Shown: positions 1-64,000 of the stretch, piece by piece | Layout of the letters: the number at the start of each line of letters is the position of its first letter | How positions within the stretch are numbered: the stretch's first letter is position 1 | DNA from: Amphiscolops sp. MND2022 | Taxonomy: Eukaryota | Assembly (NCBI GenBank): GCA_964187785.1 | Contig: OZ076409.1 | Span: 74,960,001-75,024,000 of the forward strand | Length of the DNA: 64,000 bases | Direction of reading: 5' to 3' | The notes under the pieces: generated by a model | What the model was told of the DNA's origin: nothing | Seen by the model: the letters and a program-made list of their open reading frames with translations, nothing else | Database searches by the model: none | Position numbers and translations under genes: made by a program

Positions 1-388
1 GCGCTGTTTAGTGCAGCAACGCTATTTAGGGCCTTAGGACCCATTTTGGTAAGTTTTGAAACCGTCTTATCCTTCTAATAGCACAAAACAGTTTCGTACA
101 TTCCATCTCCCTCTCGGGGGAGATGAGAATGTACTCACAAAAAACCAAGTATGACACCCCCAATCTACCAGCAATGGCGTTATGAAGGCAGCAGCGTGAG
201 CTTTACAGTAGTCTCTACGTGTGTTGACTCTGAGCTAGTAATGTATTTATATCACCAAACGTGAATGAAATGTTTTACTCCAAAATTATTTTACATTTAA
301 TATGTCATCAATGCACGCATTTCAATCTATCTACAACTACTACTACTACCTACCCCCGTGCTAGTCACGCACAAGCCTGCAGCGCTAG
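1..388 (+). repeat. Cassette D0, 3' part of a D-family unit (partial)
   Basis: Aligns by eye to the D1 tail from ~45550 (gctgtttagtgcagcaa...accgtcttatcc...gtacattccatctccc hairpin); ends gcgCTAG. Confidence 0.8.
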
Positions 389-424
389 GTGGTCCGGGGC
401 TGTATTGTGCCCCACAGTAGTCCT

Positions 425-459
425 TGCGAGGCCGGGGAGGGTCCCGATTGCCGAGCGCA
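425..459 (+). other. Conserved head stem-loop (A1 example; an equivalent follows every core)
   Basis: tgcg-a-ggc-cggg-GAGGGT-cccg-att-gcc-gag-cgca; compensatory stems in other heads. Confidence 0.8.
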
Positions 460-1211
460 TTATCCAAAATACATCACTAGTCCACCGGGTCGGATTTCGG
501 CGATTTTGGAATCTAACCATACGATTTAAATAAAACTTTGCACACATACCTAAAATCAAATTATAAGAACTTTTTTCCCCTGACGTATCATCATTGAAAC
601 ATTTGTTGAAAAGTTATGTGCAAATGATCGTGTTTTTTGGCACTTTTTCGCATTTTTCACACAGTAGCTCCACACTTTACGCTATGCATTTGGCCCATTT
701 TTTGCGTGCGAGGCATAAATGATGTCATGTTCACACATGCCAAAAATTATTTCTCAATTCGCAACAGGAGTGGAGATATGGCGGATAATATAGGCGGAAA
801 AAATAACGAATACGAAAATTTGCACATATTTGGCCAACATTTGTTTGAAAAATGAGAAAAAGTAAAAAGTACGCGGATTGCTTTGAAACTTGGCACACAG
901 GTAGTAGAACAAATTCTAAGAACTTTTTTCTTCTGACGTTTTTCCGAAAAATTGCATCTTCAACCTATATTTGCAATATTTCGGGTTTTTTGATTCAACG
1001 TGATTTATCACTCACATATTCAAAGTCCATTTTCAGCATGAAGCAACGCAGATACCGGCAATGAGCACATATTGCAAAATCATCAACGGCCAACGGTCTA
1101 CCGAACAGTCCAAAAAAATTTTGCCCTCGGGCCCAATCAAAGTGGCCAAAGGTGCCAAAATGTTTTTTCTAACAGTATCACCATTACAAAATTGATGATT
1201 TGACCAGGAGG

Positions 1212-2390
1212 AACGGTCCGCACGGTCTCGGACCATAAGGTGAAAAAGTGTCAGTGAGTTATGGTGACGACCAAAATGACATCGGTAGACCTCTAGGAGG
1301 CCTCTGAAAAAAAATTGATTTTTTTGAGTCACGGTCCGAGTTGATCTGTTACGTTGTATGAACATTTCATAATCATGTTACTCATAACCGGGTGCAGATA
1401 GCACCGTTGGTCATCTTTATCAAAATGAACATTGGGCAGCGGTCTAACGATTGAGTGTAAAAAATATACCTTAGTTGCTATTGTGAAAGAAAAAAATTCT
1501 CAGAAGTGTTGTTTTCGATTTTTCATGTCGACTCGCAGTTACAAAAAGGTGATTTTCTCTTCAGGAACGGTCCGAACGGTCTAGGACCATAAGGTCAAAA
1601 ATTGTCAGTGTGACATGGTGGCGCCCAAAAACCCATCAGAACACTTGTAGGAAGCTTCTGAAAGAATATCGGATTTTTACGTGGGTCCGAGAGTTATACT
1701 GTCACATCGTAACAACATTTCGGGTATGCATATCTCCTGACAGAGTACAGATAGCATCATGGGTCACCTTTTCGAAAAAGAACGTGGGCCACTGGTCTAT
1801 CGATTGGTCATAAAAAGTTTTCAGTCACTGCTGCACGGCGTGCACAATATGCCAATATGGGGTATTTAGCATTTTTTTGCACGACTCGGACCTACAAAAG
1901 TCCCATTTCTGCTCCACCAACGGTCCGTACGGTCTTGAACCATAAGGTCAAAAAGTGTCAGTGTGCTATGGTGACGCCCAAAAACCCATCAGTACACTTG
2001 TAGAGTGCTTCTGAAAAATTTTGGAATTTTTAGGTGAGTCCGAGAGTTATAGAGAGTTATGTTGTCACATCGTAACTACTTTTCGGGTATGTATATCTCC
2101 TGACAGAGTACAGATAGCAACATGGGTCATCTTTTGGAAAGTAAACGTGGCCCACTGGCCTACCGAATGGTGATAAAAAGTTTTCACTAGTTGCTACAGG
2201 GAATGATAAAAGTGCTTACATGTGTTACTTACCATTTTTTTAGGCGACTCGGACTTACAAAAAGCTTATTTGCTCGCCAACAACGGTCTCTACGGTCTCC
2301 GACCATAAGGTCAAAAAAGTTTTGTGAGCTATGGTGACGCCCAAGAACCCATCAGTTTACCTGTAGGATGATTCTGAAAAAATTTGTTTT
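1212..2390 (+). repeat. ~354-bp internal tandem subrepeat of A cassettes (A1 example)
   Basis: aacggtcnnnacggtc...ccataaggt-aaaaa-tgtcagtg starts at 1212, 1566, 1919, 2282 (spacing 354, 353, 363). Four starts in A1-A5, five in A6-A8, one in C. Confidence 0.85.
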
Positions 2391-4247
2391 TTTCCAGTTC
2401 ACTATGTTAGATATTACATGGCGAACCGTGTTATTTTTCCAACAAAATTATGTTTTTGAGTGCCCGAAATTAGTTTTTAAAGCACAATAGCCACATAAAA
2501 TGTTGTTTTGCATAACATGGGATGTGAATAACATGAAAAAAGGGCCCACTGTGGGTTTGGGGTCATTTTGAAAAAATCAGCTGCCATTGGACGTTACACA
2601 TCAGAAAATCATACCTCACATATCAATATATGGGTTGAGTGAAAAATAGCTTAAATGATTTTTCAATCAATCAAGACCCTTTTTTGTTCACAACCACGTG
2701 TACAGCTGACGTTGAACGCATATTGATCTTCCGCAATGGTTACATTACGATTTTGAGTGACAAAAGCCCCGTTGACAAACAAAATTCCAAGATAAAGTTT
2801 GTTTCCAAATCATTTTTTGACGTATACGACCGCCAATTTCTGCCCACACACATCAATTATCCACTTCTCTTAGTCCAGTGACATGTGAAAAACACAACTA
2901 GGCATTGACAATCCACATACACTATAAATCGAGTAGTCATGGGCAACAATATTTACAAATCAGTAGTGAAATTTGTCTAAAATTGATAACACATCACAAT
3001 TTTGTTGGAATCAAACTAGCAAAATGGAGGTTTATCAGCAACTTTAGGCTTTCACAGCAACCCACTGGCCCTGTAATATAGGAAAAGGGTGTTTACCGAA
3101 CTTTTAAGGTTTTATTTCAGAGTCTGAGGTAGCTAAAAATATCATACTGAAGAGACGCATGACTTCAACTTCAGTATTTTTCCCGATGTGTCAGCACTTT
3201 TTTGGTATCGGCGGTCCCACCAATACTGTTTTTGGTCTGACACTAAACCTTAGGATCAACCAAGGTGGATACCAGACTTGAAAAATCATTGCAAGGAATT
3301 TCTACATGTCAAAAGTAGTGATGACAGGAGATATTTCCCAAAAATTCCAGTTATTTGTCACGTTCCATTGTGCCTTTTTTAATCGGTCCTTGTCGGTTAT
3401 GGTATTAACGCTCAACAACAACCTCACTGACAAGAAACAACTCGTTTATAGTTATAAAAAGTATTTATAATACAACCATGCTCGGTCTGGACAGGTTTTT
3501 CATCCCATTCGTTGTTAACAAGCAAATTTTTTTCCCCAAAAATCCAATTTTTGTCAGGTCGAAAATTGATTTCCCGTGTTTTGAACAACATTATTGTGTC
3601 TGACGTAACCTGTGGCCTCCAAAATACTGAAAAACAGATACATGACTGGTATCAAATGCTTCATTGACATGTGAGCCACGATAACACGTTTTGCAAAGAA
3701 AAATTCAACTTTTAAGTTAAAATTTTGAAGACACATTTTCATAATAAAAACAAAATTCATAAAAAGTAACTTATTTCCCGTCAAATACTATTGATATACT
3801 ATCAGTGTTGCTAATATGAGGTCTATACAGCGGTGTATGGGAAAAATGTGGCGCATAAAGCATTGTGTAACACAAAACGTTCCAAAGTACTGCGCATTTT
3901 TCACTGTACTTTTTGGACTCTATGACAAAAATTTGATAGTGTAAACATCAATGAGCAGTTCAATTTAGTACGATTATTCAACTGTGCAAATGTTTCAAAG
4001 TGCACGATCTTTCTGTTGTTCCAAAATCCTTTGTTACGGCTGAAAAGATTCATATGTTTTACAACGCAATGTTCATTAAAAGATAAATTAGCAAAGACTG
4101 AATCAATTTTACAAAAGCTAACAAACTTCTCAATACGTCTTTCAGTACTTGGATTTTGCAGACTATATAGATCTGATTTGCATTTTTATAAAGACATTAT
4201 AACTGAATATAGCATTTTTATAAAGAACTTATAAAAAAATTTCGTGA

Positions 4248-4286
4248 TAGCCTTCCAAGTTGGCCTTCGGCCAACTTGGAAGGCTA
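4248..4286. other. Perfect 18-bp-stem hairpin of A cassettes
   Basis: tagccttccaagttggcc-ttc-ggccaacttggaaggcta; copies at 9141, 15074, 19968, 24863, 36760; variants at 30808 and 41496. Confidence 0.9.
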
Positions 4287-5287
4287 GCACTCCAAATACC
4301 AAAAAACAGGAGTTCCTTTATTCTCAAAATAGCTGTGGACAGTTTCATTCAACTTTCTTTTCTCACGTTAATTGATAAATTCAGAACATAAACATTTCCA
4401 TTCGCTATAAGGAGATCATAATTGAGTTCCATAAAAACATCTTTCATTGTGTCGCTTAAAAATACCATAAAAACTAACTTGAAACATATGAATTGTATGT
4501 GGAACGTACATTCTATTTACCAGTGAGTGTCTACCCTTATTGGCTCCACCAAATCCTCTACCCCTCCACTAGACAGTACGTTACATCATACGTTGATGTA
4601 TTTCACAGTGGTGACATAGGGCCAAATAAAAAAGAAATGGAGTGTATGCATTGCTAATGTTATTAAGTCAGCCAATTGTGGTAGGAAAGGTTCAATACTA
4701 CGAAAAATATCTATTCCAACTGAAAATGATTTGGGGCAAACACATGACACACAAAAATACCTCAATAATTTTCACCAATCAAATTCTTCCACAAAAACTT
4801 TTGTGTCCGATGGTGTATAATTTCCTAATTTGGAATCAGCCAGTCACGTCATTTTCGCATCTCAGCTCGGTCATAACAGAGCGTTCTTTTTTGAAATTGT
4901 CTCTACCCAAATTCACGTAACGAGGCTGCTACGTCCCCTATTTGGAGTGTTATTAGTGTTTATAAGGGATTAATCACTCTAATGAACATATACTTCTAAT
5001 GTTGAAACTCTTTCACTTTTCTTTGTAAATTGTTAAAGTAGAACATTGCTGTTATTCAGCAGGAACTCGCTTTGGCTTGCAGAATGATGGAAAATAAATG
5101 ACAAGTCGCCCTGTAAGGCACCACGTGTCGTGGGGATGACAAATATGAAATAAGTTGAACACAACTAAGACTACTTTTGTCAACAGAAGGGAAAACGATA
5201 ATTTTAATTATGAAAATTTTCATGTTTTTTAATACACATTTTCCTCGCATCTCGGCAGTGCAACTGCCACAACCTCGCCTCCACTGG

Positions 5288-8200
5288 GTGGTCCGGGGTG
5301 GTCCCCCACATGAACTTTTGCGAGGCCGGGGAGGGTCCCGGAGCCGAGCGCAATATCCAAAATACATCACTAGTCCACCGGGTCCGATTTCGGCGATTTT
5401 GGAAACTAACCATACGATTTTGATGAAACTTTGCACACATACCTAAAATCAAATTATAAGAACTTTTTTCCCCTGACGTATCATCATTGAAACATTTGTT
5501 GAAAAGTTATGTGCAAATGATCGTGTTTTTTGGCCATTTTTCGCATTTTTCACGTAGCAGCTCCACACTTTACGCTATGCATTTGGCCCATTTTTTGCGT
5601 GCGAGGCATAAATGATGTCATGTTTACACATGCCAAAAATTATTTCTCAATTCGCAATAGGAGTGGAGATATGGCGGATAATATTGGCGGAAAATTTAAC
5701 GAATACGAAAATTTGCACATATTTGGCCAACATTTGTTTCAAAAATGACAAAAAATTAAAAAGTCCGCGGATTGCGTTGAAACTTGGCACACAGGTAGTA
5801 GAACAAATTCTAAGAACTTTTTTCTTCTGACGTTTTTCCGAAAAATTGCATCTTCAACCTATATTTGCAATATTTCGGGTTTTTTGATTCAAGGTGATTT
5901 ATCACTCACATATTCAAAGTCCATTTTCATCATGAAGCAACGCATATAGCGGCAATGTGCACTTTTTGCAAAATCATCAACGGCCAACGGTCTACCGAAC
6001 GGTCCAAAAAAATTTTGCCCTCGGGCCCAATTAAAGTGGCCAAAAGTGCCAAAAGGTTTTTTCTAACAGTATCACCATCACAAAATTGATGATTTGACCA
6101 GGAGGAACGGTCCGCACGGTCTCGGACCATAAGGTGAAAAATTGTCAGTGACTTATGGTGACGACCAAAATGACATCGGTAGACCTCTAGGAGGCCTCTG
6201 AAAAAAATTGATTTTTTTGAGTCACGGTCCGAGTTGATCTGTTACGTTGTATGAACATTTCATAATCATGTTACTCATAACCGGGTGCAGATAGCACCGT
6301 TGGTCATCTTTATCAAAATGAACATTGGGCAGCGGTCTAACGATTGAGTGTAAAAAATATACCTTAGTTGCTATTGTGAAAGAAAAAAATTCTCAGAAGT
6401 ATTGTTTTCAATTTTTCATGTCGACTCGCAGTTACAAAAATGTGATTTTCTCTTCAGCAACGGTCCGAACGGTCTGGTACCATAAGGTCAAAAATTGTCA
6501 GTGTGACATGGTGGCGCCTAAAAACCCATCAGAACACTTGTAGGAAGCTTCTGAAAGAATATCGGATTTTTACGTGGGTCCGAGAGTTATACTGTCACAT
6601 CGTAACAACATTTCGGGTATGCATATCTCCTGACAGAGTACAGATAGCATCATGGGTCACCTTTTCGAAAAAGAACGTGGGCCACTGGTCTATCGATTGG
6701 TCATAAAAAGTTTTCAGTCACTGCTGCACGGCGTGCACAATATGCCAATATGGGGTATTTAGCATTTTTTTGCACGACTCGGACCTACAAAAGTCCCATT
6801 TCTGCTCCACCAACGGTCCGTACGGTCTTGAACCATAAGGTCAAAAAGTGTCAGTGTGCTATGGTGACGCATAAAAACCTATCAGTACACTTGTAGAGTG
6901 CTTCTGAAAAATTTTGGAATTTTTAGGTGAGTCCGAGAGTTATAGAGAGTTATGTTGTCACATCGTAACTACTTTTCGGGTATGTATATCTCCTGACAGA
7001 GTACAGATAGCAACATGGGTCATCTTTTGGAAAGTGAACGTCGGCCACTGGCCTACCAAATGGTGATAAAAAGTTTTCACTAGTTGCTACAGGGAATGAT
7101 AAAAGTGCTTACATGTGTTACTTACCATTTTTTTAGGCGACTCGGACTTACAAAAAGCTTATTTGCTCGCCAACAACGGTCTCTACGGTCTCCGACCATA
7201 AGGTCAAAAAAGTTTTGTGAGCTATGGTGACGCCCAAGAACCCATCAGTTTACCTGTAGGATGATTCTGAAAAAATTTGTTTTTTTCCAGTTCACTATGT
7301 TAGATATTACATGGCGAACCGTGTTATTTTTCCAACAAAATTATGTTTTTGAGTGCCCGAAATTAGTTTTTAAAGCACAATAGCCACATAAAATGTTGTT
7401 TTGCATAACATGGGATGTGAATAACATGAAAAAAGTGCCCACTGTGGGTTTGGGGTCATTTTGAAAAAATCAGCTGCCATTGGACGTTACACATCAGAAA
7501 ATCATACCTCACATATCAATATATGGGTTGAGTGAAAAATAGCTTAAATGATTTTTCAGTCAATCAAGACCCTTCTTTGTTCACAACCACGTGTACAGCT
7601 GACGTTGAACGCATATTGATCTTCCGCAATGGTTACATTACGATTTTGAGTGACAAAAGCCCCGTTGACAAACAAAATTCCAAGATAAAGTTTGTTTCCA
7701 AATCATTTTTTGACGTATACGACCGCCAATTTCTGCCCACACACATCAATTATCCACTTCTCTTAGTCCAGTGGCATGTGAAAAACACAACTAGGCATTG
7801 ACAATCCACATACACTATAAATCGAGTAGTCATGGGCAACAATATTTACAAATCAGTAGTGAAATTTGTCTAAAATTGATAACACATCACAATTTTGTTG
7901 GAATCAAACTAACAAAATGGAGGTTTATCAGCAACTTTTGGCTTTCACAGCAACCCACTGGCCCTGTAATATAGGAAAAGGGTGTTTACCGAACTTTTAA
8001 GGTTATATTTCAGAGTCTGAGGTAGCTAAAAATATCATACTGAAGAGACGCATGACTTCAACTTCAGTATTTTTCCCGATGTGTCAGCACTTTTTTGGTA
8101 TCGGTGGTCCCACCAATACTGTTTTTGGTCTGACACTAAACCTTAGGATCAACCAAGGTGGATACCAGACTTGAAAAATCATTGCAAGGAATTTCGACAT

Positions 8201-10180
8201 GTCAAAAGTAGTGATGACAGGAGATATTTCCCAAAAATTCCAGTTATTTGTCACGTTCCATTGTGCCTTTTTTAATCGGTCCTTGTCGGTTATGGTATTA
8301 ACGCTCAACAACAACCTCACTGACAACAAACAACTCGTTTATAGTTATAAAAAGTATTTATAATACAACCATGCTCGGTCTGGACAGGTTTTTCATCCCA
8401 TTCGTTGTTAACAAGCAATTTTTTTTCCCCAAAAACCCAATTTTTGTCAGGTCGAAAATTGATTTCCCGTGTTTTGAACAACATTATTGTGTCTGACGTA
8501 ACCTGTGGCCTCCAAAATACTGAAAAACAGATATATGACTGGTATCAAATGCTTCATTGACATGTGAGCCACGATAACACGTTTTGCAAAGAAAAATTCA
8601 ACTTTTAAGTTAAAATTTTGAAGACACATTTTCATAATAAAAACAAAATTCATAAAAAGTAATTTATTTCCCGTCAAATACTATTGATATACTATCAGTG
8701 TTGCTAATATGAGGTCTATACAGCGGTGTATGGGAAAAATGTGGCGCATAAAGCATTGTGTAACACAAAACTTTCCAAAGTACTGCGCATTTTTCACTGT
8801 ACTTTTTGGACTCTATGACAAAAATTTGATAGTGTAAACATCAATGAGCAGTTCAATTTAGTACGATTATTCAACTGTGCATATGTTTCAAAGTGCACGA
8901 TCTTTCTGTTGTTCCAAAATCCTTTGTTACGGCTGAAAAGATTCATATGTTTTACAACGCAATGTTCATTAAAAGATAAATTAGCAAAGACTGAATCAAT
9001 TTTACAAAAGCTAACAAACTTCTCAATACGTCTTTCAGTACTTGGATTTTGCAGACTATATAGATCTGATTTGCATTTTTATAAAGACATTATAACTGAA
9101 TCTTGCATTTTTATAAAGAACTTATAAAAAAATTTCGTGATAGCCTTCCAAGTTGGCCTTCGGCCAACTTGGAAGGCTAACACTCCAAATCCCAAAAAAC
9201 AGGAGTTCCTTTACTCTCAAAATAGCTGTGGACAGTTTCATTCAACTTTCTTTTCTCACGTTAATTGATAAATTCAGAACATAAACATTTCCATTCGCTA
9301 TAAGGAGATCATAATTGAGTTCCATAAAAACATCTTTCATTGTGTCGCTTAAAAATACCATAAAAACTAACTTGAAACATATGAATTGTATGTGGAACGT
9401 ACATTCTATTTACCAGTGAGTGTCTACCCTTATTGGCTCCACCAAATCCTCTACCCCTCCACTAGACAGTACGTTACATCATACATTGATGTATTTCACA
9501 GTGGTGACATAGGGCCAAAAAAAAACGAAATGGAGTGTATGCATTGCTAATGTTATTAAGTCAGCCAATTGTGGTAGGAAAGGTTCAATACTACGAAAAA
9601 TATCTATTCCAACTGAAAATGATTTGGGGCAAACACATGGCACACAAAAAAACCTCAATAATTTTCACCAATCAATTTCTTCCACAAAAACTTTTGTGTC
9701 CGATGGTGTATAATTTCCTAATTTGGAATCAGCCAGTCACGTCATTTTCGCATCTCAGCTCGGTCATAACAGAGCGTTCTTTTTTGAAATTGTCTCTACC
9801 CAAATTGACGTAACGAGGCTGCTACGTCCCCTATTTGGAGTGTTATTAGTGTTTATAAGGGATTAATCACTCTAATGAACATATACTTCTAATGTTGAAA
9901 CTCTTTCACTTTTCTTTGTAAATTGTTAAAGTAGAACATTGCTGTTATTCAGCAGGAACTCGCTTTGGCTTGCAGAATGATGGAAAATAAATGACAAGTC
10001 GCCCTGTAAGGCACCACGTGTCGTGGGGATGACAAATATGAAATAAGTTGAACACAACAAAGACTACTTTTGTCAACAGAAGGGAAAACGAAAATTTTAA
10101 TTATGAAAATTTTTATGTTTTTTAATACACATTTTCCTCGCATCTCGGCAGTGCAACTGCAACAACCTCGCCTCCACTGG
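5288..10180 (+). repeat. Cassette A2 (4893 bp)
   Basis: Between cores 5284 and 10177; near-identical to A1 except the first ~60 bp and scattered substitutions. Confidence 0.88.
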
Positions 10181-10961: not shown

Positions 10962-11006
10962 TCCGTTGTTCCTGAGAAATGCGAAGCAGTTCGCAGGAAC
11001 AACGGA
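10962..11006 (+). other. B/C-family hairpin capped by GC-GAA-GC
   Basis: tccgttgttcctg/caggaacaacgga 13-bp stem; homologues at 26679, 32623, 43325, 44395. Confidence 0.8.
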
Positions 11007-11061
11007 TAGAAATAACGAAGTACCCGGGTGGTTGGAATGAGAGATATGTAATCATTCGTTA

Positions 11062-11092
11062 AACTGATGAAAAACAGAGTTTTTCATCAGTT
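11062..11092. other. Perfect 14-bp-stem hairpin in B1
   Basis: aactgatgaaaaac-aga-gtttttcatcagtt; B2 copy at 26779-26809 has one G.T pair. Confidence 0.85.
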
Positions 11093-11216
11093 GAACAGAC
11101 GAAAAACGTTTCCATGGATGTTACCTAAAGTGAACAGTGCTGGTAGCGTATTTTAAAATTTAATTCAACAGAAGCCGCCCGCCCACTCTGGTAATTAGTT
11201 TCCTTGCCTCCACTGG

Positions 11217-52000: not shown

Positions 52001-52073
52001 TCCGTAGGCATGCCGAGGCATGCCTTTCGACGACGCGCGCCAAAAACAATATAACGGCGCCACCCGCTTCTGG
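49003..52073 (+). repeat. Cassette E2 (3071 bp)
   Basis: Between cores 48999 and 52070. Confidence 0.9.
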
Positions 52074-55000
52074 GTGGTCAGTGCTGTTGCGTTCATTTTT
52101 TTCCGGCCGTGGGGGAGGGCCCCTCTGAGGCCGGTCATTTTTCAGGTAACAGCTTTCTTATACAAAAAAGCGGGAAAAAACCTCAGTGCTCAAATCCCAA
52201 CCGTCAGAATGAGCTGAAATTTGGCATGTAGCTAGTGCATTGCAAATGATTAGGATGGGTTATAACGCTATGTTTGGCAAAATTGGTTTTGTTGCATTTT
52301 TTTTGTCATATAGGGCCAAAAATGGCCTTTTTTGCGTATTTTTTGCTTGACTAGCTAATAACTCGCGTTGGGTTGGTACTAGCGATACGGGTGTGGGGTA
52401 TGGAATTGTAAGAATACCAAGTACCTTGCTGATCACGTTATTTGATTTCCGCCCACATCACCCCCCACGCCGGAAATGCCCAATTTGTCACTTCCGGTCG
52501 CAATTTTTGACTTTTTTGGATGGAGTCAAAACCCATTTCCGGTGTGAAGGAGTGGGTTGAGCGCTTCGACCCCAATATACTAAAAGTAGGTTTAGACAAA
52601 GTCCTATTAGGAAAAAAGTAATGTAAGCCCGTACCTATCACCCCCTCACCGGAAATAGGGGTCACGCCTCCTTTTTCTGTGTTGCAAAAGTGACATGTAC
52701 ACATTTGTCCAACTCCGAAGCTCCGGAGCACTGTGGGACCCTTATACTTTCTAAACACCTATCCCACACGCTACCGGAAGTGACCGGAAGTTTCACCGGA
52801 AATGACATCCTTGGACCGGAAATGGTCAAAAAAGGACTTTTTCAATAAAAAAAAAGACACTTTTGGTGCAATTTTTAGGCAAAAAGCATAATTCGTGATA
52901 CGCTTGTTGCAGTTGAAAGGGCCATTGTTCAGCAAGAATGCATACAGCATTACGTAGCACATCAAGTGGTTGATAATTTTTCGTCCATTATATCCATAGG
53001 ACCGGAAATGGCCATTTTTGAATCGGAAATTTCTTCAGCTTGATTTTTAACAAGTTTTTCCACAATATTAGTGTAGGAATTGCTCGTCGGATGCTTTAGG
53101 TCTATTTTAAAACTAGCTGACTGCTTCTTAGAAATGTATTTCAGAAATCCCAACCAATTCCAGATTACCGGAAATGGGAGTAATTGCCTCCTTTATGACC
53201 TTTGAATGATAAATTGTTAAAATCCGCAAATTATTTTATTCCACAACTGTTGCTCAGGTTATATCTAAGCAATAACATCTGCTTGTTTTGAAGCGCTTTA
53301 TTGTGGGAGATACAAATATTGCTTTTTAATAGTAATACATACGTGATATTCGCCGCAATAAAGATTTTTCAAATCAACCATTTTGAAGTCCTACTGGTGT
53401 TCCGCACACCCGAAATAATTTAAGTTTCTAGTTTCGATTTTCAGGCTTCCGCGACTATTGAGTTGAGATGATAGTTTTCACGTTTTCTGCAAAACGGGCA
53501 TTTCATTGTGTATGTGACATTTATTGGGTTGTTTCACATGGTAATTCAAAACTAATTGATCATACAATTTAGAACAATTGAAAATTTTCAATTGAACAAT
53601 AAATGTTTTTAATAATTTCTCTTTCGTTAAAGAGACTCTTTTGTGGCCATTAGAACAGGTTGAATTGGTTGAATAAGTAACCAGTGCGATACATCGTTTA
53701 ATACATAGCGTTTGACATCGTTTTCTTGCGAACAAAGACAAGCATGATTTGTTGGAAGTTTTTACCATATCGCTTCAAATCGGTCGTGACAAACAATGAA
53801 TTTCTCGTTTTAATTGCTACTTCGAAAGCAGCCTGAAAACGCAAATCGATCTATTGAGTTATGGAGATGCAACTAAGCATTTCAAGTCTGGGTTTTAATT
53901 TCATTCTATCACTCCGGACTATTTTCATGTCGCAAGAGTGACAAAGCGTCTTAGCAAGGTTAAAAACATCGAACAATTTTAATAATAAAGCCTCCGGAAA
54001 GGGAAAAAAATGAGTTTTCCTGTCGAAACAATGATAACCACGTACGAAACATCAAGCTTTTGTATTGTTCAATAGTCCAAAACGTGAATGAAGTTTTTAA
54101 ATATCCAAGAGTTTCTAATCAAGCATGCGTTTCAAATGTCTCACAGGGCAGCATCGTTTTCAAAAAGCAGTGCTTTCAGTGTGGTTTCACACCAGCAAAA
54201 CGAGCGCAGGCACAACCACATTCTCAAAATTCTTGCACAACAACCAATTTCTTTGAAAATCCTATTTGATTCCTCAAGGTATATGGTGAGAACCCTGTTG
54301 GGTTCCAAAGTTGATGTGCTGTTTTCTTGGGTTTGCGAGATAAGTTACAACGGAAATCTGAAAGCAGGTCGTCTCAATAAAATACCTGTTGCTCTTTAAA
54401 CGATTGGACTTAAGTAGTCGAAATTTATTCTCAGACACTTTCGATCAGAGAATGTTTGAGTCCTAATGTTCGATTCAGGTTGGTTTCAGGTGGCTCGAAG
54501 TGCCAGCTGAACCAACCTTTCAAATAAAGAAAAACCCCACACCTCCCTTCATGCCACGCTACCCCGTATAGCGTTTCAACTTGACAGAAATTGGAACGTT
54601 TGATTTTGGCGTTGCTTGGGGTTGACACACCAGTGTTGATACTAAATTAGGCAAGAGAAATCGCAGAAATGATTGTTTCCGTTTTTTTCCTTTGATTCAG
54701 TCTGTCGAGCGTACAAAGCAGTTTGGGAAACTAACTTGCATTTCCACTGAAAGAAAAAAAAGTAGTAGCCTTGCGAACTCCTGGAAGAGATTGAATCAGG
54801 TTTCCCTATTTGTGAGATCAGCTGTCACTCAATTATCAATTACTTTTTAAAAAAAATTATGAACAACTAATCTAACTCTGCTCGACTCTCTTGGATAATG
54901 CAACAATAGTTTACTGATCTGTACTCGTGAGAAAAAAAATCAACTGCAGGTCCAAAAACAATCTATATGTATTTGGTTTATTCCGTGCAAAGCTTTTTTT

Positions 55001-55144
55001 CACACCATGTGACTCAACTATAACATGTATGTAATGAAACCAATAACACCTTCAACTATCAACGCTCACCGTCTGTAGGCATGCCGAGGCATGCCTTTCG
55101 ACGACGCGCGCCGAATACAAATTAACGGCGCCACCCGCTTCTGG
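52074..55144 (+). repeat. Cassette E3 (3071 bp)
   Basis: Between cores 52070 and 55141. Confidence 0.9.
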
Positions 55145-58100
55145 GTGGTCAGTGCTGTTGCGTTCATTTTTTTCCGGCCGTGGGGGAGGGCCCCTCTGAG
55201 GCCGGTCATTTTTCAGGTAACAGCTTTCTTATACAAAAAAGCGGGAAAAAACCTCAGTGCTCAAATCCCAACCGTCAGAATGAGCTGAAATTTGGCATGT
55301 AGCTAGTGCATTGCAAATGATTAGGATGGGTTATAACGCTATGTTTGGCAAAATTGGTTTTGTTGCATTTTTTTTGTCATATAGGGCCAAAAATGGCCTT
55401 TTTTGCGTATTTTTTGCTTGACTAGCTAATAACTCGCGTTGGGTTGGTACTAGCGATACGGGTGTGGGGTATGGAATTGAAAGATTACCAAGTACCTTGC
55501 TGATGACGTTATTTGATTTCCGCTCACATCACCCCCCACGCCGGAAATGCCCAATTTGTCACTTCCGGTCGCAATTTTTGACTTTTTTGGATGGAGTTAA
55601 AACCCATTTCCGGTGTGAAGGAGTGGGTTGAGCGCTTCGACCCCAATATACTAAAAGTAGGTTTAGACAAAGTCCTATTAGGAAAAAAGTAATGTAAGCC
55701 CGTACCTATCACCCCCTCACCGGAAATAGGGGTCACGCCTCCTTTTTCTGTGTTGCAAAAGTGACATGTGCACATTTGTCCAACTCCGAAGCCCCGGAGC
55801 ACCGTGGGACCCTTATACTTTCTAAACACCTATCCCACACGCTACCGGAAGTGACCGGAAGTTTCACCGGAAATGACATCCTTGGACCGGAAATGGTCAA
55901 AAAATGACTTTTCAATGCAAAATAGACACATTTGGTGCGATTTTTAGGCAAAAAGCATAGTTCGTGAAACGCTTGTTGCAGTTGGAAGGGCCATTGTTCA
56001 GCAAGAATGCGTACAGCATTACGTAGCACATCAAGTAGTTGATACTTTTTCGTCCATAATATCCTTGGGACCGGAAATGGCCATTTTTGAATCGGAAACG
56101 TCTTCAGCTTGATTTTTAACAGGTTTTTCCGCAATATTAGCGTAGGAATTGCTCGTCGGATGCTGTAGGTCTATTTTAAAACTAGCTAACTGCTTCTTAG
56201 AAATGTATTTCAGAAGTCCCAACCAATTCCAGAATACCGGAAATAAGAGTAATTGCCTCCTTTATGACCTTTGAATAATAAATTGTTAAAATCCGCATAT
56301 TATTTTTTTCCACACTTGTTGCTGAGATTATATCTAAGCAATAACATGTGCTTGTCAGGAAGTGCTGTAATGTGGGAGTTACGAATATTGCTCTTTAAGA
56401 GTATTACATACGTGAATATCCGCCGTAATAAAGATTTTTAAAACAACCACTTTTGAAGTCCTATAGATTGTCCGCACACCCGAAACAATTCAAGTTTCTA
56501 GTTTCGATTTTAAGGCTTCCGCGACTATTTAGTTGAGATGATAGTTTTCACGTTCTCTGCAAAACGTGCATTTCATTGTGTTTTTGACATTTATTGGGCT
56601 GTTTCACATTGTAATTCAAAACTAATTGATCATACAATTTGGAACAATTGAAAATTTTCAATTGAACATTAAATGTTTTAATAGTTTCTCTTTCGTTGAA
56701 GATACTATTTTGTGGCCATTAGAACAGGTTGAATTAGTTGAATAAGTAGCCAGTGCGATACATCGTTTAATAAATAGCGTTTGACATCGGTTTTTTTGCG
56801 AACAAAGACAAGCATGATTTGTTGAAAGTTTTTACCATATCGCTTCAAATCGGGTGTGACAAACAAGGAATTTCTCGTTTTATGTGCTACTCCGAAAGCA
56901 ACCTGAAAACGCAAATCGATCTATTGAATTATCGAGATGAAACTAAGCATTTCAAGTCTGGATTTCAATTTAATTCTATCACTCCGGTCTATTTTTATGT
57001 CGCAAGAGTGATAAAGCGTGTTAGCAAGGTTAAACACATCGAACAATTTTAATAATAAAGCCTCCGGAAAGGGAAGAAAAAATGAGTTTTCCTGTCAAAA
57101 CTATGATAACCACGTACGAAACATCAAGTTTTTGTATTGTTCAATAGTCCAAAACGTGAATGAAGTTTTTAAATATCCAAGCGTTTCTAATCAAGCATGT
57201 GTTTCAAATGTCTGACAGGGCAGCATCGTTCTCAAAAAACATTGCTTTCAATGTGGTTTGATACCAGCAAAACGAACGTAGGCACAACCAGATTCTCAAA
57301 TTTCTTGCAAAACAGCCGATTTCTTTGAAAATCCTAATTGATTTCACAGGGTATATGGTGAAACCCTGTTGGATTCCAAAAATGAAAAGCTGATTTCTTG
57401 GGTTTGCGAGATAAAAGACAACGGGAATCTGAAAGCAAGTCATCTCAATAAAATACATGTTGCTCTTTAAACAAATGGACTTTAGTAGTCGAAATTTTTT
57501 CTCAGACACTTTCGATCAGAGAATGTTTGAGTCCTAACGTTCGAATCAGGTTGGTTTCAGGTGGCTCGAAGTGCCAGCTGAACCAACCTTTCAAATAAAG
57601 AAAAACCCCACATCTCCCTTCATGCCACGCTACCCCGTATAGCGTTTCAACTTGACAGAAGTTGGAACGTTTGATTTTGGCGTCGCTTGGGATTGACACA
57701 CCAGTGTTGATACTAAATTTGGCAAAGAGAAATCGCAGAAATGATTGTTTCTTTTTTTCCCTTTGATTTAGTCTGTCGAGCGTACAAAGCAGTTTGGGAA
57801 ACTAACTTGCATTTCCACTGAACGAAAAAAAGTAGTAGCCTTGCAAACTCCTGGAAGAAATTGAATCAGGTTTTCCTATTTGTGAGATCAGCTGTCACTC
57901 AATTATCAATTACTTTTTCAAAAACTTTTAGGAACAACTAACCTAACTCTGCTCGACTCTCTTGAATAATGCAACAATCGTTTACTGATCTGTACTCGTG
58001 AGAAAAAAATCAACTGCAGGTCCAAAAACAATCTATATATCTTTGGTTTATTCCGTGCAAAGCTTTTTTTCACACCATGTGACTCAACTATAACATGTAT

Positions 58101-58214
58101 GTAATGAAACCAATAACACCTTCAACTATCAACGCCCACCGTCCGTAGGCATGCCGAGGCATGCCTTTCGACGACGCGCGCCGAAAACAATCTAACGGCG
58201 CCACCCGCTTCTGG
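55145..58214 (+). repeat. Cassette E4 (3070 bp)
   Basis: Between cores 55141 and 58211. Confidence 0.9.
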
Positions 58215-61200
58215 GTGGTCAGTGCTGTTGCGTTCATTTTTTTCCGGCCGTGGGGGAGGGCCCCTCTGAGGCCGGTCATTTTTCAGGTAACAGCTTTCTT
58301 ATACAAAAAAGCGGGAAAAAACCTCAGTGCTCAAATCCCAACCGTCAGATTGAGCTGAAGTTTGGCATGTAGCTAGTGCATTGCAAATGATTAGGATGGG
58401 TTATAACGCTATGTTTGGCAAAATTGGTTTTGTTGCATTTTTTTTGTCATATAGGGCCAAAAATGGCCTTTTTTGCGTATTTTTTGCTTGACTAGCTAAT
58501 AACTCGCGTTGGGTTGGTACTAGCGATACGGGTGTGGGGTATGGAATTGTAAGAATACCAAATACCTTGCTGATCACGTTATTTGATTTCCGCCCACATC
58601 ACCCCCCACGCCGGAAATGCCCAATTTGTCACTTCCGGTCGCAATTTTTGACTTTTTTGGATGGAGTCAAAACCCATTTCCGGTGTGAAGGAGTGGGTTG
58701 AGCGCTTCGACCCCAATATACTAAAAGTAGGTTTAGACAAAGTCCTATTAGGAAAAAACTAATGTAAGCCCGTACCTATCACCCCCTCACCGGAAATAGG
58801 GGTCACGCCTCCTTTTTCTGTGTTGCAAAAGTGACATGTGCACATTTGTCCAACTCCGAAGCCCCGGAGCACTGTGGGACCCTTATACTTTCTAAGCACC
58901 TATCCCACACGCTACCGGAAGTGACCGGAAAATTCACCGGAAATGACATCCTTGGACCGGAAATGGTCAAAAAAGGACTTTTTCAATAAAAAATAGACAC
59001 TTTTGGTGCAATTTTTAGGCAAAAAGCATAATTCGTGGTACGCTTGTTGCAGTTGAAAGGGCCATTGTTCAGCAAGAATGCATACAGCATTACGTAGCAC
59101 ATCAAGTGGTTGATAATTTTTCGTCCATAATATCCATAGGACCGGAAATGGCCATTTTTGAATCGGAAATTTCTTCAGCTTGATTTTTAACAAGTTTTTC
59201 CACAATATTAGTGTAGGAATTGCTCGTCGGATGCTTTAGGTCTATTTCAAAACTAGCTGACTGCTCCCTAGAAATGTATTTCAGAAATCCCAACCAATTC
59301 CAGATTACCGGAAATGGGAGTAATTGCCTCCTTTATGACCTTTGAATGATAAATTGTTAAAATCCGCAAATTTTTTTATTCCACAACTGTTGCTCAGGTT
59401 ATATCTAAGCAATAACATCTGCTTGTTTTGAAGTGCTCTATTGTGGGAGATACAAATATTGCTTTTTAATAGTAATACATACGTGATATTCGCCGCAATA
59501 AAGATTTTTCAAATCAACCATTTTGAAGTCCTACTGGTGTTCCGCACACCCGAAATAATTTAAGTTTCTAGTTTCAATTTTCAGGCTTCCGCGACTATTG
59601 AGTTGAGATGATAGTTTTCACGTTCTCTGCAAAACGGGCATTTCATTGTGTATGTGACATTTATTGGGTTGTTTCACATGGTAATTCAAAACTAATTGAT
59701 CATACAATTTAGAACAATTGAAAATTTTCAATTGAACAATAAATGTTTTAATAATTTCTCTTTCGTTAAAGATACTCTTTTGTGGCCATTAGAACAGGTT
59801 GAATTGGTTGAATAAGTAACCAGTGCGATACATCGTTTAATACATAGCGTTTGACATCGTTTTCTTGCGAACAAAGACAAGCATGATTTGTTGGAAGTTT
59901 TTACCATATCGCTTCAAATCGGTCGTGACAAACAATGAATTTCTCGTTTTATGTGCTACTCCGAAAGCAACCTGAAAACGCAAATCGATCTATTGAATTA
60001 TCGAGATGAAACTAAGCATTTCAAGTCTGGATTTCAATTTAATTCTATCACTCCGGTCTATTTTTATGTCGCAAGAGTGATAAAGCGTGTTAGCAAGGTT
60101 AAACGCATCGAACAATTTTAATAATAAAGCCTCCGGAAAGGGAAGAAAAAATGAGTTTTCCTGTCAAAACTATGATAACCACGTACGAAACATCAAGTTT
60201 TTGTATTGTTCAATAGTCCAAAACGTGAATGAAGTTTTTAAATATCCAAGCGTTTCTAATCAAGCATGCGTTTCAAATGTCTGACAGGGCAGCATCGTTC
60301 TCAAAAAACATTGCTTTCAATGTGGTTTGATACCAGCAAAACGAACGTAGGCACAACCAGATTCTCAAATTTCTTGCAAAACAGCCGATTTCTTTGAAAA
60401 TCCTAATTGATTTCACAGGGTATATGGTGAAACCCTGTTGGATTCCAAAAATGAAAAGCTGATTTCTTGGGTTTGCGAGATAAAAGACAACGGGAATCTG
60501 AAAGCAAGTCATCTCAATAAAATACCTGTTGCTCTTTAAACAAATGGACTTTAGTAGTCGAAATTTTTTCTCAGACACTTTCGATCAGAGAATGTTTGAG
60601 TCCTAACGTTCGAATCAGGTTGGTTTCAGGTGGCTCGAAGTGCCAGCTGAACCAACCTTTCAAATAAAGAAAAACCCCACATCTCCCTTCATGCCACGCT
60701 ACCCCGTATAGCGTTTCATTTTGACAGAAGTTGGAACGTTTGATTTTGGCGTCGCTTGGGATTGACACACCAGTGTTGATACTAAATTTGGCAAAGAGAA
60801 ATCGCAGAAATGATTGTTTCTTTTTTTTCCCTTTGATTTAGTCTGTCGAGCGTACAAAGCAGTTTGGGAAACTAACTTGCATTTCCACTGAACGAAAAAA
60901 AGTAGTAGCCTTGCAAACTCCTGGAAGAAATTGAATCAGGTTTTCCTATTTGTGAGATCAGCTGTCACTCAATTATCAATTACTTTTTAAAAAATTTTTA
61001 GGAACAACTAACCTAACTCTGCTCGACTCTCTTGAATAATGCAACAATCGTTTACTGATCTGTACTCATGAGAAAAAAATCAACTGCAGGTCCAAAAACA
61101 ATCTATATATCTTTGGTTTATTCCGTGCAAAGCTTTTTTTCACACCATGTGACTCAACTATAACATGTATGTAATGAAACCGATAACACCTTCAACTATC

Positions 61201-61284
61201 AACGCCCACCGTCCGTAGGCATGCCGAGGCATGCCTTTCGACGACGCGCGCCGGAAACAATCTAACGGCGCCACCCGCTTCTGG
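58215..61284 (+). repeat. Cassette E5 (3070 bp)
   Basis: Between cores 58211 and 61281. Confidence 0.9.
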
Positions 61285-62558
61285 GTGGCCGTGTCTTTTC
61301 GACGTGCTTTTGCATCGAGGAGTGGGTAGGGCCCCGCGACGACCTAGAAGAATTGGATGCTCACCGAAACGTGCAGAATTCTACGAGATCTCATAGTTTG
61401 AGCCATACGATTTTTCTGAAATTTGGCATGTGGCCTGGAATTGGTGAGTAGGTAAAACGTGTAGAAGGTAATTTTTCCCAAATTCCATTGTGAGAGGAGA
61501 TATGGGCAAATAACGGACCCAAAATTGGGGAAAATGCACTTTTTTCAAGTTTGTCAGCCAATATCTCATTTCCAGGTGCCCGTAGCGTTCCGCACGTGGA
61601 CGTCAATATTGCTCAACGCTGTTGGAAGAGTGCGTGGACAAATTTTGGTTCAAATCGGACTGAAACTTGGCGAGAAATTAACGGTTTTTTGGGCGTTTCC
61701 GGGGTAAATTTTTTAACGGTCCAGCTTATCTTTGCCATTTTTTCGAAAATGTACATGCCTAAAGGCCTCCCCCTGGCCGAATTTACTCCCAGCAAACCCA
61801 TTTGGCCCTAAATACGGAGTTTCAGCTGTCCAGCATTTCCGGGCGAAAAGTTGTGGGACTTTGAAAAATTTCAAAATTTTTCAAAAATTTTTTTTTCCGT
61901 TTTCCGGGCCCCCCAATGAAGGGGAACGACCCCCCAACCAGTATTTTGAGTAATTTCATGAGGAAAGCCCATGTTTAGAGGAGAAAATGCCGCTTAGAAC
62001 GTCTTTTTATCTTAACTTGATGTTGACTTATGATCTTTTGAGTAGCGTATAACACGTGATCACAGTAGTGAAAACCCTAATTTTCAAAAATTTTCAAACC
62101 ATAACGCATGAAAAGAACCTGGAAAAGGTTCCGATGGGTCAGTTGGGATGTCTGAAGCATGTGTACATTCCCGTAGTGTATAGCGGATGTATTTGGGACT
62201 TATTAGAAATTGTGATATGTTTTATACAAGTCTTTGTTTCTCTTAGAATCTTATGCAGTTGAGTACATTCCATCTCCCTCTCAGGGGAGATGTGAATGTA
62301 CGTTTGCCAAATGCCTTGTATATTTCACATCTTTGATGGATTCAAATAACTAAACAAGTGTGATTTGCGTTTGCCGAACCACTGCGACAAAACATCCTAA
62401 ATCTATAGCGAGTATGTATGGTTTTTGTCTTTAGTGTTTCGTCTTGTGTAGCCGACTTCCACATCCAAATATCAACGCCCGCCGTCCGTAGGCATGCCGA
62501 GGCATGCCTTTCGACGACGTATGCCAAATGCCCAATGCCACGCTGTCATTATCGCTAG
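61285..62558 (+). repeat. Cassette D2 (1274 bp), D body with E-type terminal hairpin
   Basis: Between cores 61281 and 62555 (CTAGGTGC); D hairpin at 62263, E-type hairpin at 62483. Confidence 0.83.
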
Positions 62559-63847
62559 GTGCCGGGATTTCTATTCGTTCGAGTATGTGGCGCGTGTGGG
62601 TAGGGCCCCTGGCGCGCTCTTTTATTTCGGGTACACCTACTCCAAATTCACGATGTGATTTCGACGATCTCGTAAACTAGCCACACGATTTGGCTGAAAT
62701 TTGGCACACGTACCCCCCTTGGCACGGTGAAGATGATTCCCTACTGACGTTTTGCCCGCTAAACATTTTTTGTTGACCAAAATAACGGTTTTTGGTGGAA
62801 AATTTTCAACTTTTTTTAAATTTCATCTTATATCTCGCCCCAGGTTTACGCTAGCGCTTCAAAACCTTGCTGACGAAAGTTTGCAAACTGTCTCAGGAAT
62901 GCGGTGTGAAATTTTTAGCTCAATCGGACTTAAACTCGAGGAGATATAGCGTTTTTCCGGAGCGGGGGGGTTTCATTTTTCTAACGGTCCAGCGTATCTT
63001 TGCCATTTTTTCGAAAATGCACTCGCCTAAAGGCCTCCCCTGGCCGGTTTTACTCCCAAAAAAACCATTTGGCCCTAAATACGGGGTTTCAGCGTTCTAG
63101 CATTTTCGGGCGAAAAGTTGTGGGACTTAGAAAATTTCAAAAATTTTCAAAAAATTTTTTTTCCGTTTTTTGGGCCCCCAATGTGGGGGAAAGGACCCCC
63201 CAACCAGTATTTTGAGTGAATGCATGTGCAAAGCGCTTTTTTAGAGGAGAAAAATGTCGTTTAGAACGTCTTTTTATCTTTACTCAACGTTGACTTATGA
63301 CGTTTTGAAGGTGATGTAAAGAGGTGTGAAGCACGTGAAAAGTAAACGTTATGAGTATTTATTTGATCTGAAAGCCATTCAGATGCAATCTGATTTGCCC
63401 AAAATGTAATTCATTTCAGTTTAGCAGTCAATCAACACCCTTTGTTGTCGTTTGACATATTTTTTTGTTGATATAATAAAAAATTTTGTGTATTTATTTA
63501 TTTTTTTCTCATCGAATAACTTGAAACAGTTGAGTACATTCCATCTCCCTTCCCGGGGGAGATGAGAATGTACTCGCAAAAAGCCCCGAACTATGGCCCT
63601 TACCTTCCCGAGCTACGCAGTATAAAGATTGCATATTGGTTTCGACATTTTGTTAGAGTTATATCTTGGTAATCTGTCTGGATATGCAGAAAAATCAGCA
63701 CGTGCCTTTTTATACCAAGTTGCTCACAACGACAATTATTTTATATCAACGCCCCCATATTTATCAACGCCCCCCGTCCGTGGGCATGCCGAGGCATGCC
63801 CTTCGACGACGTGCACCAAGATATACCCCGAACGCGGTAGCAGCTAG
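62559..63847 (+). repeat. Cassette D3 (1289 bp), D body with E-type terminal hairpin
   Basis: Between cores 62555 and 63844; D hairpin at 63532, E-type hairpin at 63775. Confidence 0.83.
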
Positions 63848-64000
63848 GTGGCCGGAAATTTTTTTTTTCAGCAAAATCTTTGCCATTGGGGGAGGGGCCC
63901 CGGATGGCCAGTAGTACGGGATAGCTTCCTACCAAATCCAGGCGGAAAAAACGTGATTTTGGAAACTAGCCGTCAGAATTTGCTCAAAATTTGCATACGG
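63848..64000 (+). repeat. Head of a further cassette (partial)
   Basis: CTAGGTGG core, stem-loop gccat-t-gggg-GAGGGG-cccc-gg-atggc, and box tcaaaatttgca at +140. Confidence 0.8.

Follow-up and report, generated by a model that had tools for sequence, protein, structure and literature searches.

Organization of the Window

The DNA analyzed here is a 64,000-nucleotide stretch ("the window") of the Amphiscolops sp. MND2022 genome (1.07 Gb; assembly GCA_964187785.1), located at C1:74,960,001–75,024,000 (G000; C1 is contig OZ076409.1), and it is occupied by non-coding units that are joined end to end in a single orientation. Arrays of such units are a real feature of this genome and represent a variant of rolling-circle transposon, related to the Helitron-like elements (HLEs), with apparent targeting of its own junctions; they are not an integron. 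A scan for the core CT[AG]GGTG returned 22 matches on the + strand (385 to 63844) and none on the − strand, and a first-order Markov model of the window gives a chance expectation of 3.5 per strand. GTGG was present at 21 of the 22 junctions and GTGC at one (62555). These are exactly the positions listed in an earlier, sequence-only reading of this DNA, and its observation that the joints have neither spacer nor target duplication holds for every junction in the window.

The junctions delimit 21 complete units of 1,031–4,911 bp. These units are without genes, as the longest stop-to-stop frame in the window is only 145 aa, and an Rfam scan of the window returned 0 matches. The sequence-only reading had described the units as different and unrelated cassettes whose left ends (heads) and right ends (tails) reassort at the core. 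Every head and tail pairing that it named is present and several unit types do occur, but the types are not all unrelated: the 4.7–4.9-kb and 1.07-kb types have 60–75% of their bodies in common at 72–84% identity, and the 1.27-kb types have blocks in common with one another. The features of the window are as follows.

1–388, + strand: 3′ portion, with its CTAG tail, of a non-autonomous unit (1,264 bp) whose start lies upstream of the window
385–391, + strand: example junction, CTAG^GTG, with a putative nick between base 4 and base 5
5284, 10177, 11213, 16108, 21006, 25899, 26930, 31838, 32872, 37783, 42517, + strand: other cores of the same sequence type
43587, 44657, 45927, 48999, 52070, 55141, 58211, 61281, 62555, 63844, + strand: other cores, continued
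389–5287, + strand: type A unit, 4,899 bp; non-coding; its interior holds 363-bp repeats and a 47-bp palindrome
421–460, + strand: head hairpin of unit 389–5287, a GC-rich stem with tandem G·A pairs and an invariant six-base loop (437–442)
1566–2381, + strand: 363-bp tandem repeat inside the A-type body, 2.3 copies
6447, 12381, 17271, 22304, 28106, 34060, 38578, + strand: further 363-bp repeat sites
5288–10180, + strand: type A unit, 4,893 bp
10181–11216, + strand: type B unit, 1,036 bp
11217–16111, + strand: type A unit, 4,895 bp
16112–21009, + strand: type A unit, 4,898 bp
21010–25902, + strand: type A unit, 4,893 bp
25903–26933, + strand: type B unit, 1,031 bp
26934–31841, + strand: A-related unit, 4,908 bp, ~82% identity across 65% of A
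31842–32875, + strand: B-related unit, 1,034 bp, autonomous-like left end
32876–37786, + strand: A-related unit, 4,911 bp
37787–42520, + strand: A-related unit, 4,734 bp, variant hairpin loop
42521–44660, + strand: two type C units, 1,070 bp each, 98.5% identity
44661–45930, + strand: D-type unit, 1,270 bp, autonomous-like left end
45931–61284, + strand: five type E units, 3,070–3,072 bp, mutual identity 93–99%
48937–48952, + strand: tail palindrome, ~50 nt ahead of CTRG; more at 52008, 55079, 58149, 61219, 62492, 63784
61285–62558, + strand: D-type unit, 1,274 bp, head block and tail in common with the 15.0-kb autonomous element described below
62559–63847, + strand: D-type unit, 1,289 bp, GTGC head
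63848–64000, + strand: head of the following unit; the array continues for at least 100 kb on either side of the window

The 47-bp palindrome of the A-type bodies (window 4244–4290, and the equivalent place in other copies) was also seen in some 2-kb families.

Autonomous Elements in the Arrays

The sequence-only reading attributed the joining of different units at a short core to a site-specific enzyme acting in trans, either an HUH rolling-circle transposase or a tyrosine or serine recombinase, and suggested a search for a member with a long open reading frame (ORF). Such a unit, 15,001 bp in length and bounded by CTAG|GTGG, was found at C1:74,936,334–74,951,334 and ends 8.7 kb upstream of the window. 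It has a single intronless frame of 2,369 aa that matches PF14214 (Helitron_like_N, 30.3 bits, cut-off 28.9) and PF05970 (PIF1, 34.7 bits, cut-off 25.9), and it has a weak match to the helicase part of Helraiser 7LCC. Its motif 1, its HUH motif and its two tyrosines (YxxxY) align with their Helitron counterparts. In a second autonomous unit, 90 kb upstream, the protein also has GIY-YIG at its C terminus (26.1 bits, cut-off 22.6), a domain found in most of the relatives that were scanned. The transposases of these units are intronless proteins of 2,200–2,850 aa in which an HUH Rep with two catalytic tyrosines (Y2) is followed by a PIF1 helicase and usually by GIY-YIG, and the first of the two proposed kinds of enzyme is therefore encoded by units that have the same ends as the non-coding ones.

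A genome search for Rep gave 114 matches from 504 candidates (111 scored), ~69 of them in stop-free frames of at least 2,000 aa. The autonomous elements are 13–15 kb long and lie in the same arrays as the non-autonomous units, and all ten copies that were read with both flanks (10/10) sit between CTRG|GTG junctions. Ratios of nonsynonymous to synonymous substitution (dN/dS) were 0.05–0.22 in four transposase pairs, two further pairs being saturated, and the transposases are by these values under purifying selection.

Non-autonomous and autonomous copies have terminal sequences in common. Over its first 590 bp, unit 31842–32875 matches the left ends of two Rep-PIF1-GIY-YIG elements (C1:3.6 Mb) at 88–90% identity, and unit 44661–45930 has 88% identity over 676 bp to the left end of an autonomous element at C2:57.83 Mb. 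The 15-kb element and a 1,272-bp unit have their first 961 bp in common at 96%.

Across 546 kb of units, the long ORFs encode Rep-PIF1 or accessory proteins. The accessory ORFs lie downstream of the transposase (L025:6312–6971 and 7978–9129; also in L028, L038, L119 and L126). One encodes a conserved, cysteine-bearing protein of 335–466 aa that resembles an oligonucleotide-binding (OB)-fold single-strand binder, and the other a 219-aa SGNH-like protein, both labels being language-model look-alikes only (0.93 and 0.94; recognition 1869 and 2980). The accessory ORFs had no Pfam or PDB sequence match. In addition, longer members have an N-terminal OTU-like domain, which was weak in L029 (C1:3.60–3.61 Mb) and over the cut-off in P0093.

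Ends and Insertion Target

A larger sample, 251 units from 15 stretches (546 kb), comprises 60 families. All 251 units start with GTG, the core by which they were selected, and this start was confirmed at solo copies found from the tail side; 213 units end with CTAG and 38 with CTGG. The R base of the core had been assigned by the sequence-only reading to the upstream unit. This proved correct, as each of the 20 multi-copy families in the 274 kb around the window has one fixed tail tetramer (20/20) and the tetramer preceding its heads varies. Because R stays with the tail of each family, the apparent four-base direct repeat at the ends of a unit is not a duplication. The breakpoint, which had been placed within GGTG, does lie there and can now be narrowed to CTRG^GTG, as host DNA after a tail begins with A or T and intact heads can follow a base other than G. 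The element is 5′-GTG...CTRG-3′, its host target is about CTDG^WT, and its insertion causes no duplication.

The solo copies and flanks that the sequence-only reading had suggested examining support these ends. At a solo 1,977-bp unit (C3:15.15 Mb) the empty paralog shows insertion at CTTG^AT with nothing gained or lost; this is the one case of clean insertion with evidence on both sides, and other cases are one-sided. Another solo copy is at CTAG^AT within a tRNA-like repeat, and the empty paralog of an array start in a long terminal repeat (LTR) retroelement reads CTAG^ATGG. Of the 39 loci with a free tail, 28 were examined; the host sequence after the tail was AT at 20, TT at 7 and AC at 1. 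The 28 include one locus within an array, one match that is probably due to chance, and three pairs of duplicates. No telomeric repeats were observed at junctions or in host flanks.

Several dispersed loci had additional characteristics. L086 (C2:16.31 Mb) and L097 (C8:15.96 Mb) are independent insertions into the same tRNA-like repeat, four bases apart; L097 has ~16 tail bases left and 29 target bases are missing on its head side. A three-unit array (L096, C6:8.765–8.770 Mb) has 17 extra bases ending in CTAG between its first tail and second head, from either tail read-through or two insertions at neighboring host sites. L115, L116 and L117 are older solo copies of one family at CTAG^AT or CTAG^TT, and since they remain solo with both ends intact, founders do not always seed arrays.

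Junction Preference and Array Growth

For one frequent tail motif, GTG came next at 1,669 sites, against 39 sites with a base other than G (29 A, 10 T and no C; flanks with G but not GTG were not counted), and ~97% of tested tails run directly into another head. On the + strand of the 251 units (546 kb), 564 internal CTDG-DT sites were present and none bears an insertion (0/564), in agreement with the earlier proposal that existing junctions are the target. The composite units that we checked were junctions with a point change or a short deletion.

The order of units was highly mixed, with 98 distinct ordered family pairs at 143 junctions. Among 43 pairs of copies with at least 98% identity, only 11 had a neighbor in common and 32 differed in both neighbors. 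Type E units were 94–99% identical when adjacent and 93.5–99% when non-adjacent, that is, neighbors were no more alike than distant copies. The unused internal sites, the differing neighbors and the number of ordered pairs together point to units integrating one by one at existing junctions.

Head Hairpins and Strand Polarity

In 233 of the 251 units, a stem with a six-base loop was found 30–65 nt inside the left end. The sequence of the stem varies by family yet pairs within each, with a mean score of 14.2 versus 11.3 for crossed arms, a modest margin. The hairpin is visible only across families, and single-sequence folding at eight junctions gave weak signals (z −2.1 to +1.3). On the + strand, the non-Watson-Crick oppositions in 46 distinct head stems were G·T (29), A·G (29) and A·C (1), and the + strand fold was the more stable in 39 of the 46 heads. 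The first 32 bases of the heads had no such strand bias (16 vs 37). As the wobble and sheared oppositions and the fold stability all favor the + strand, they suggest that the substrate is a single-stranded + strand, likely nicked at CTRG^GTG. At the other end, a palindrome ~50 nt ahead of CTRG is present in 189 of the 251 units and in the 15.0-kb autonomous element. It is symmetric, and nothing consistent was seen in the remaining units.

Extent of the Arrays in the Genome

In the 274 kb around the window, which were read with one 200-N gap (264 kb around the window are gap-free), we counted 145 junctions; the 144 units between them account for 272,224 bp and were grouped at 80% identity into 37 families. 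The window sits in a co-oriented block of about 6.0 Mb, which was read for 274 kb plus samples at both ends. The limits of the array, which the sequence-only reading had proposed locating, are at C1:70,454,838, where the block is preceded by host DNA ending in CTAG, and between 76,485,000 and 76,500,000. All 35 Rep matches within C1:70.45–76.5 Mb are on the + strand (35/35). Inside the block, at C1:76,005,439 (L064), a tail runs into non-array DNA (1.5 kb or more, starting with TTAA), which is either another element or the edge of a sub-array.

Genome-wide, a junction-plus-hairpin pattern that recovers 232 of the 251 known heads gave 5,277 matches (4,086 forward, 1,191 reverse), and the reversed-pattern control gave 7 (5 and 2). 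Extrapolation from these counts suggests ~5,700 units of 2.2 kb in the whole genome, roughly 12 Mb or ~1% of 1.07 Gb. Further arrays are at C1:3.49–3.64, 23.96–24.02, 29.53–29.54 and 37.9–38.2 Mb, and also on C2, C3, C6, C7 and C10. At C2:102.0–103.9 Mb and C3:2.4–3.9 Mb the Rep strand flips from − to + within the array, giving diverging halves that reflect either real polarity or scaffolding; the former array extends to the end of its 103.9-Mb contig. Gaps of 200 N were noted in or beside arrays at L037:8673–8872, L044:8097–8296 and L035:2473–2672. At C1:23.98 Mb two arrays seem to meet tail to tail, but a 200-N gap falls at that point and the case was left out of the evidence. The host at the array start at C1:23.955–23.962 Mb (L035–L036) is an LTR retroelement with long gag/pol-like frames, presumably of Pao-like type.

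Relatives and Classification

A word search gave 42 relatives of the transposase; among cluster representatives there were 555 with E ≤0.001, of which 85 were at 1e-30. Those named are from Perkinsus olseni and the hagfish Myxine glutinosa, and metagenomes also contain members; in viral contigs there was one locus, with a match confined to the GIY-YIG part. Motif 2 (type EFQxxxGNLPHIH) has at least two extra residues in 34/34 rows of this group and none extra in 34/35 HLE1 and HLE2 rows. A quick tree of Rep plus helicase (69 rows) placed the group on a separate branch (100 by the Shimodaira–Hasegawa-like approximate likelihood-ratio test), as did a Rep-only tree under a mixture model (47 of the 69 rows, 22 close ones omitted; 100/100). 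Both trees are unrooted and carry a long-branch warning, their HLE1 and HLE2 rows are from this genome and database searches, and HLE2 from fungi, plants and oomycetes are thinly sampled. DUF6570 and apurinic/apyrimidinic (AP) endonuclease domains were absent from the three array proteins and six relatives scanned and from the precomputed domains of the 42 relatives; DUF6570 was present in eight HLE2 ORFs of this genome. Canonical transposases of HLE1 and of HLE2 (DUF6570) are dispersed through the same genome (L102–L113), outside the array intervals seen.

Two metagenome contigs with a member at ~30% protein identity are 99.8% alike from CTGG^GTAG and CTAG^GTAG on, and their upstream DNA is unrelated; since such contigs have it, the CTRG^GT end type is not peculiar to this genome. 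In another metagenome contig, the same head loop is found 1.8 kb ahead of the ORF.

In having an HUH Rep (Y2) fused to PIF1, insertion without target duplication, and ends in common with autonomous copies, the elements conform to HLEs in the broad sense. They have neither the 5′-TC start, the A^T target nor the tree position of HLE1, and neither DUF6570 and AP endonuclease, the T^T target nor the tree position of HLE2. The unit ends are not inverted, and BLAST at 1e-8, a search not specific for 12-bp subterminal repeats, detected only the internal palindrome. Insertion into telomeric repeats and a CCAA right end, which characterize 'HLE Paramecium', were not found. Replitrons are described as having a Rep with one tyrosine (Y1), no helicase, and short terminal direct repeats (PMC10288648); here the helicase is fused and there are two tyrosines. 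Overall, the elements probably share the Helitron mode of action; they belong with HLEs in the broad sense and lie outside HLE1 and HLE2 by their ends, target and tree.

Proposed Mechanism and Alternative Explanations

We consider it highly probable that the units are non-autonomous rolling-circle HLEs which, with Rep-PIF1 partners, build polarized mixed arrays by junction-targeted integration; our confidence is lower for the polarity and for the role of GIY-YIG. From what was observed, namely the ends, the enzyme genes, the duplication-free insertion at CTDG^WT and the array statistics, we infer the following biochemistry, including the circles. Rep would nick the + strand at CTRG^GTG beside the head hairpin, the PIF1 helicase would peel the strand off, and a second nick at the unit's own CTRG would close a circle whose joint is again CTRG^GTG. 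In integration, the circle joint would exchange strands with a target. Occasionally a founder would enter a host CTDG^WT site and start a new array. Each genomic junction would be a full Rep substrate, comprising nick site and head hairpin, the same as the circle joint, and because of this later units of any compatible family would be inserted far more often at junctions. As each insertion leaves two junctions, there would be no limit to array growth, polarity would be maintained and families would become mixed. Analogous cases are relaxase-mediated integration at oriT copies and the action of adeno-associated virus (AAV) Rep at AAVS1. Individual steps have precedents in Helraiser, for which plus-strand nicking, circles and precise end-to-end joints are reported (PMC5876387), and in IS91, with its tetranucleotide target and absence of duplication (PMC13181058).

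A number of observations weigh against this explanation. Same-family neighbors are enriched (33 of 143 junctions vs 12.3 when shuffled) and two tail groups cluster (131 of 143 vs 107 expected), which indicates that family bias, concatemer insertion or local duplication and unequal exchange also contribute. One array start has empty paralogs that read CTGG^GA or CTGG^AA and not CTDG^WT, two intact heads are preceded by no CTDG, and the head-side flanks (9 CTAG, 2 CTGG, 1 CTTG, 1 other) come mostly from a pattern that demands CTRG and are hence biased. In the transposase family nearest the window (L017:781–7890; C2:42.17 Mb) GIY-YIG looks degenerate by eye, with consensus residues seemingly lost; the ORF of that family is nevertheless intact and under purifying selection. 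The metagenome relatives (34 loci, 20 examined for ends) had no tandem units or terminal overlaps in contigs of at most 17.6 kb.

The dispersed copies also bear on polarity. Among 28 tail-selected dispersed loci, 15 are without a head, 10 have it intact or nearly so and 3 are unclear, a count in which some loci are duplicates or possibly from families outside the comparison library; all three head-selected solo copies retain the tail (3/3). The tail is thus the fixed end and the head the variable one, which fits a tail origin on the − strand equally well. In that case the same elements and enzyme would transfer the − strand, with the CTRG tail as origin, the hairpin head as terminator and the ORF read towards the origin, as in IS91 (compare 'HLE2-reverse'), and junction targeting would be kept. 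The origin is the fixed end in IS91 (PMC13181058), and reversed Helitron ORFs are on record (PMC11417382, PMC13085455). We regard − strand transfer as unlikely, if a serious contender, as wobble and sheared pairs in the head hairpin favor the + strand by 29:1 (not 30 independent events, the 46 stems being related by descent) and the + fold is stabler in most heads. Moreover, CTRR-3′ agrees with the right end of HLE1, and truncated tandem Helitrons are reported in plants (as cited in PMC5148889). It is decidedly improbable, in our judgment, that insertion occurs only at simple CTDG^WT sites, with arrays built up by concatemers from rolling-circle replication and by unequal exchange or conversion at the conserved ends, selection purging copies elsewhere, and no true junction targeting. 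Tandem Helitron arrays made by rolling-circle replication are known (PMC5876387, PMC12001565), and the same-family runs, the clustered tail groups and the exchange of heads and tails among bodies would all follow. Such a process is difficult to reconcile with adjacent type E copies that are no more alike than distant ones, near-identical pairs that mostly differ in both neighbors, the many ordered family pairs, 564 unused internal sites in neutral DNA, and only 7 bases common to tail and head at the joint.

An RNA route like that of Penelope-like elements, in which a GIY-YIG nick primes reverse transcription by a reverse transcriptase (RT) supplied in trans and the head hairpin forms in RNA, would account for the precise 3′ ends, variable 5′ truncation, target deletion and the GIY-YIG domain itself, and G·T pairs suit RNA as well. 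We think this very remote: no RT was found among the ORFs scanned in autonomous units, there is no poly(A) and no duplication, Rfam gave no match in the window, and the HUH, Y2 and helicase motifs are intact and under purifying selection. The integron-like option of the sequence-only reading, a tyrosine or serine recombinase acting on excised double-stranded circles, was suggested by the seamless joints, single orientation and mixed order, and was not supported by the analysis. The units read contain no recombinase ORF, no tyrosine integrase beside the array and no gene-bearing cassettes or captured genes, only Rep-PIF1 and accessory frames. No inverted dyad surrounds the core, and a genome search with PF00589, a profile with low sensitivity for eukaryotic tyrosine recombinases, gave four weak matches, none in the array intervals seen; no search was made for serine recombinases. 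We find this option scarcely credible. An assembly artefact can be practically discounted: junctions were read from assembly sequence alone and 200-N scaffold gaps lie within some arrays, but the sites number 5,277, diverged families each have a fixed tail, solo copies are matched by an empty paralog, other assemblies contain close relatives of the protein, and the 264 kb around the window are gap-free.

Comparison with Known Systems

Canonical Helitrons (HLE1, e.g., Helraiser; PMC11417382, PMC5876387) are like the present elements in their Rep-PIF1 protein, CTRR-like 3′ end and lack of target duplication, and likewise have many non-autonomous copies with common ends and head-to-tail joints. 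They differ in their TC 5′ end and A^T target, in place of GTG and CTDG^WT. In the present group, moreover, the main conserved hairpin lies 30–65 nt in from the left end, motif 2 is longer, the protein has GIY-YIG at its C terminus and branches separately, and ~97% of tested tails are in mixed arrays. HLE2 (Helitron2/Helentron) are similar in Rep-PIF1, long ORFs, hairpins at both ends and internal minisatellites in non-autonomous copies; the present group is on a separate branch and is without DUF6570, AP endonuclease and the T^T target. The OTU domain, otherwise described for HLE2, is present here in some longer array-type members, and GIY-YIG is reported once, in a Sphagnum HLE2 family (PMC11417382).

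The closest system in behavior is 'HLE Paramecium' (PMC13085455), which likewise forms a third, divergent clade. Its ORFs are long, its orientation is strict, its insertion is site-specific, and its many ORF-less derivatives fill whole chromosome regions. Those elements target C4A2 telomeric repeats and end in CCAA, and their copies are flanked by telomeric repeats and not directly joined. The main text of that source has no mention of GIY, and its clade is set apart from the present group by description, not by tree. The IS91 family is alike in its Y2 HUH enzyme, a tetranucleotide target (CTTG or GTTC) 5′ of the nick, an end that resembles the target, subterminal palindromes and absence of duplication; it is bacterial and has no fused helicase, and no large mixed arrays are described in the text available of PMC13181058. 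Helitron-derived arrays in plant centromeres, Xenopus and Hydractinia (PMC11934779) are also tandem, locally accumulated Helitron-related DNA, but they are single-family runs or an internal minisatellite (a 372-bp unit in Hydractinia, PMC11934779; 2–7 repeats in Xenopus), whereas here whole units of ~60 families alternate with their ends intact. The Hydractinia subtelomeric repeat was considered as the same phenomenon and rejected, as it is a minisatellite array (PMC11934779).

Our literature search, whose coverage excluded Repbase, Dfam and subscription journals, found neither this group nor mixed, junction-targeted Helitron arrays described in any paper. HELIANO left unclassified HLEs in 19 genomes, possibly including the present group (PMC11417382). 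The group has probably been missed, or filed as satellite of unknown type, in other genomes, because its Rep scores barely exceed the Pfam cut-off and annotation programs look for end signals that it does not have. A broader proposal, to which we assign an even chance, is that it constitutes an undescribed major HLE clade (Rep-PIF1-GIY-YIG) extending from alveolates to hagfish. Its HUH transposase would act as a site-specific integrase dedicated to the joint of its own circles. A head of ~60 nt and a CTRG tail would be all that a unit needs for insertion at existing joints, and dozens of families would share one landing pad and build polarized multi-megabase domains.

Helitrons are generally regarded as having almost no target preference beyond A^T or T^T; the sole reported exception enters telomeres. 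This divergent group appears to aim at its own junctions, a harmless niche for some 60 families. Dozens of intact intronless transposase genes, together with short defined ends, make target choice and integration by Helitrons directly testable, and they suggest a compact site-specific insertion tool. If the broader proposal is true, this would be a eukaryotic, helicase-equipped, single-strand system that inserts 1–15-kb cargo at a short defined site, and a transposon route to large heterochromatic or centromeric blocks without satellite-type homogenization. Integrons likewise consist of co-oriented units joined at a short core; in the arrays described here there is no integrase, attC-like dyad or genes, and the mobile units are the transposons themselves.

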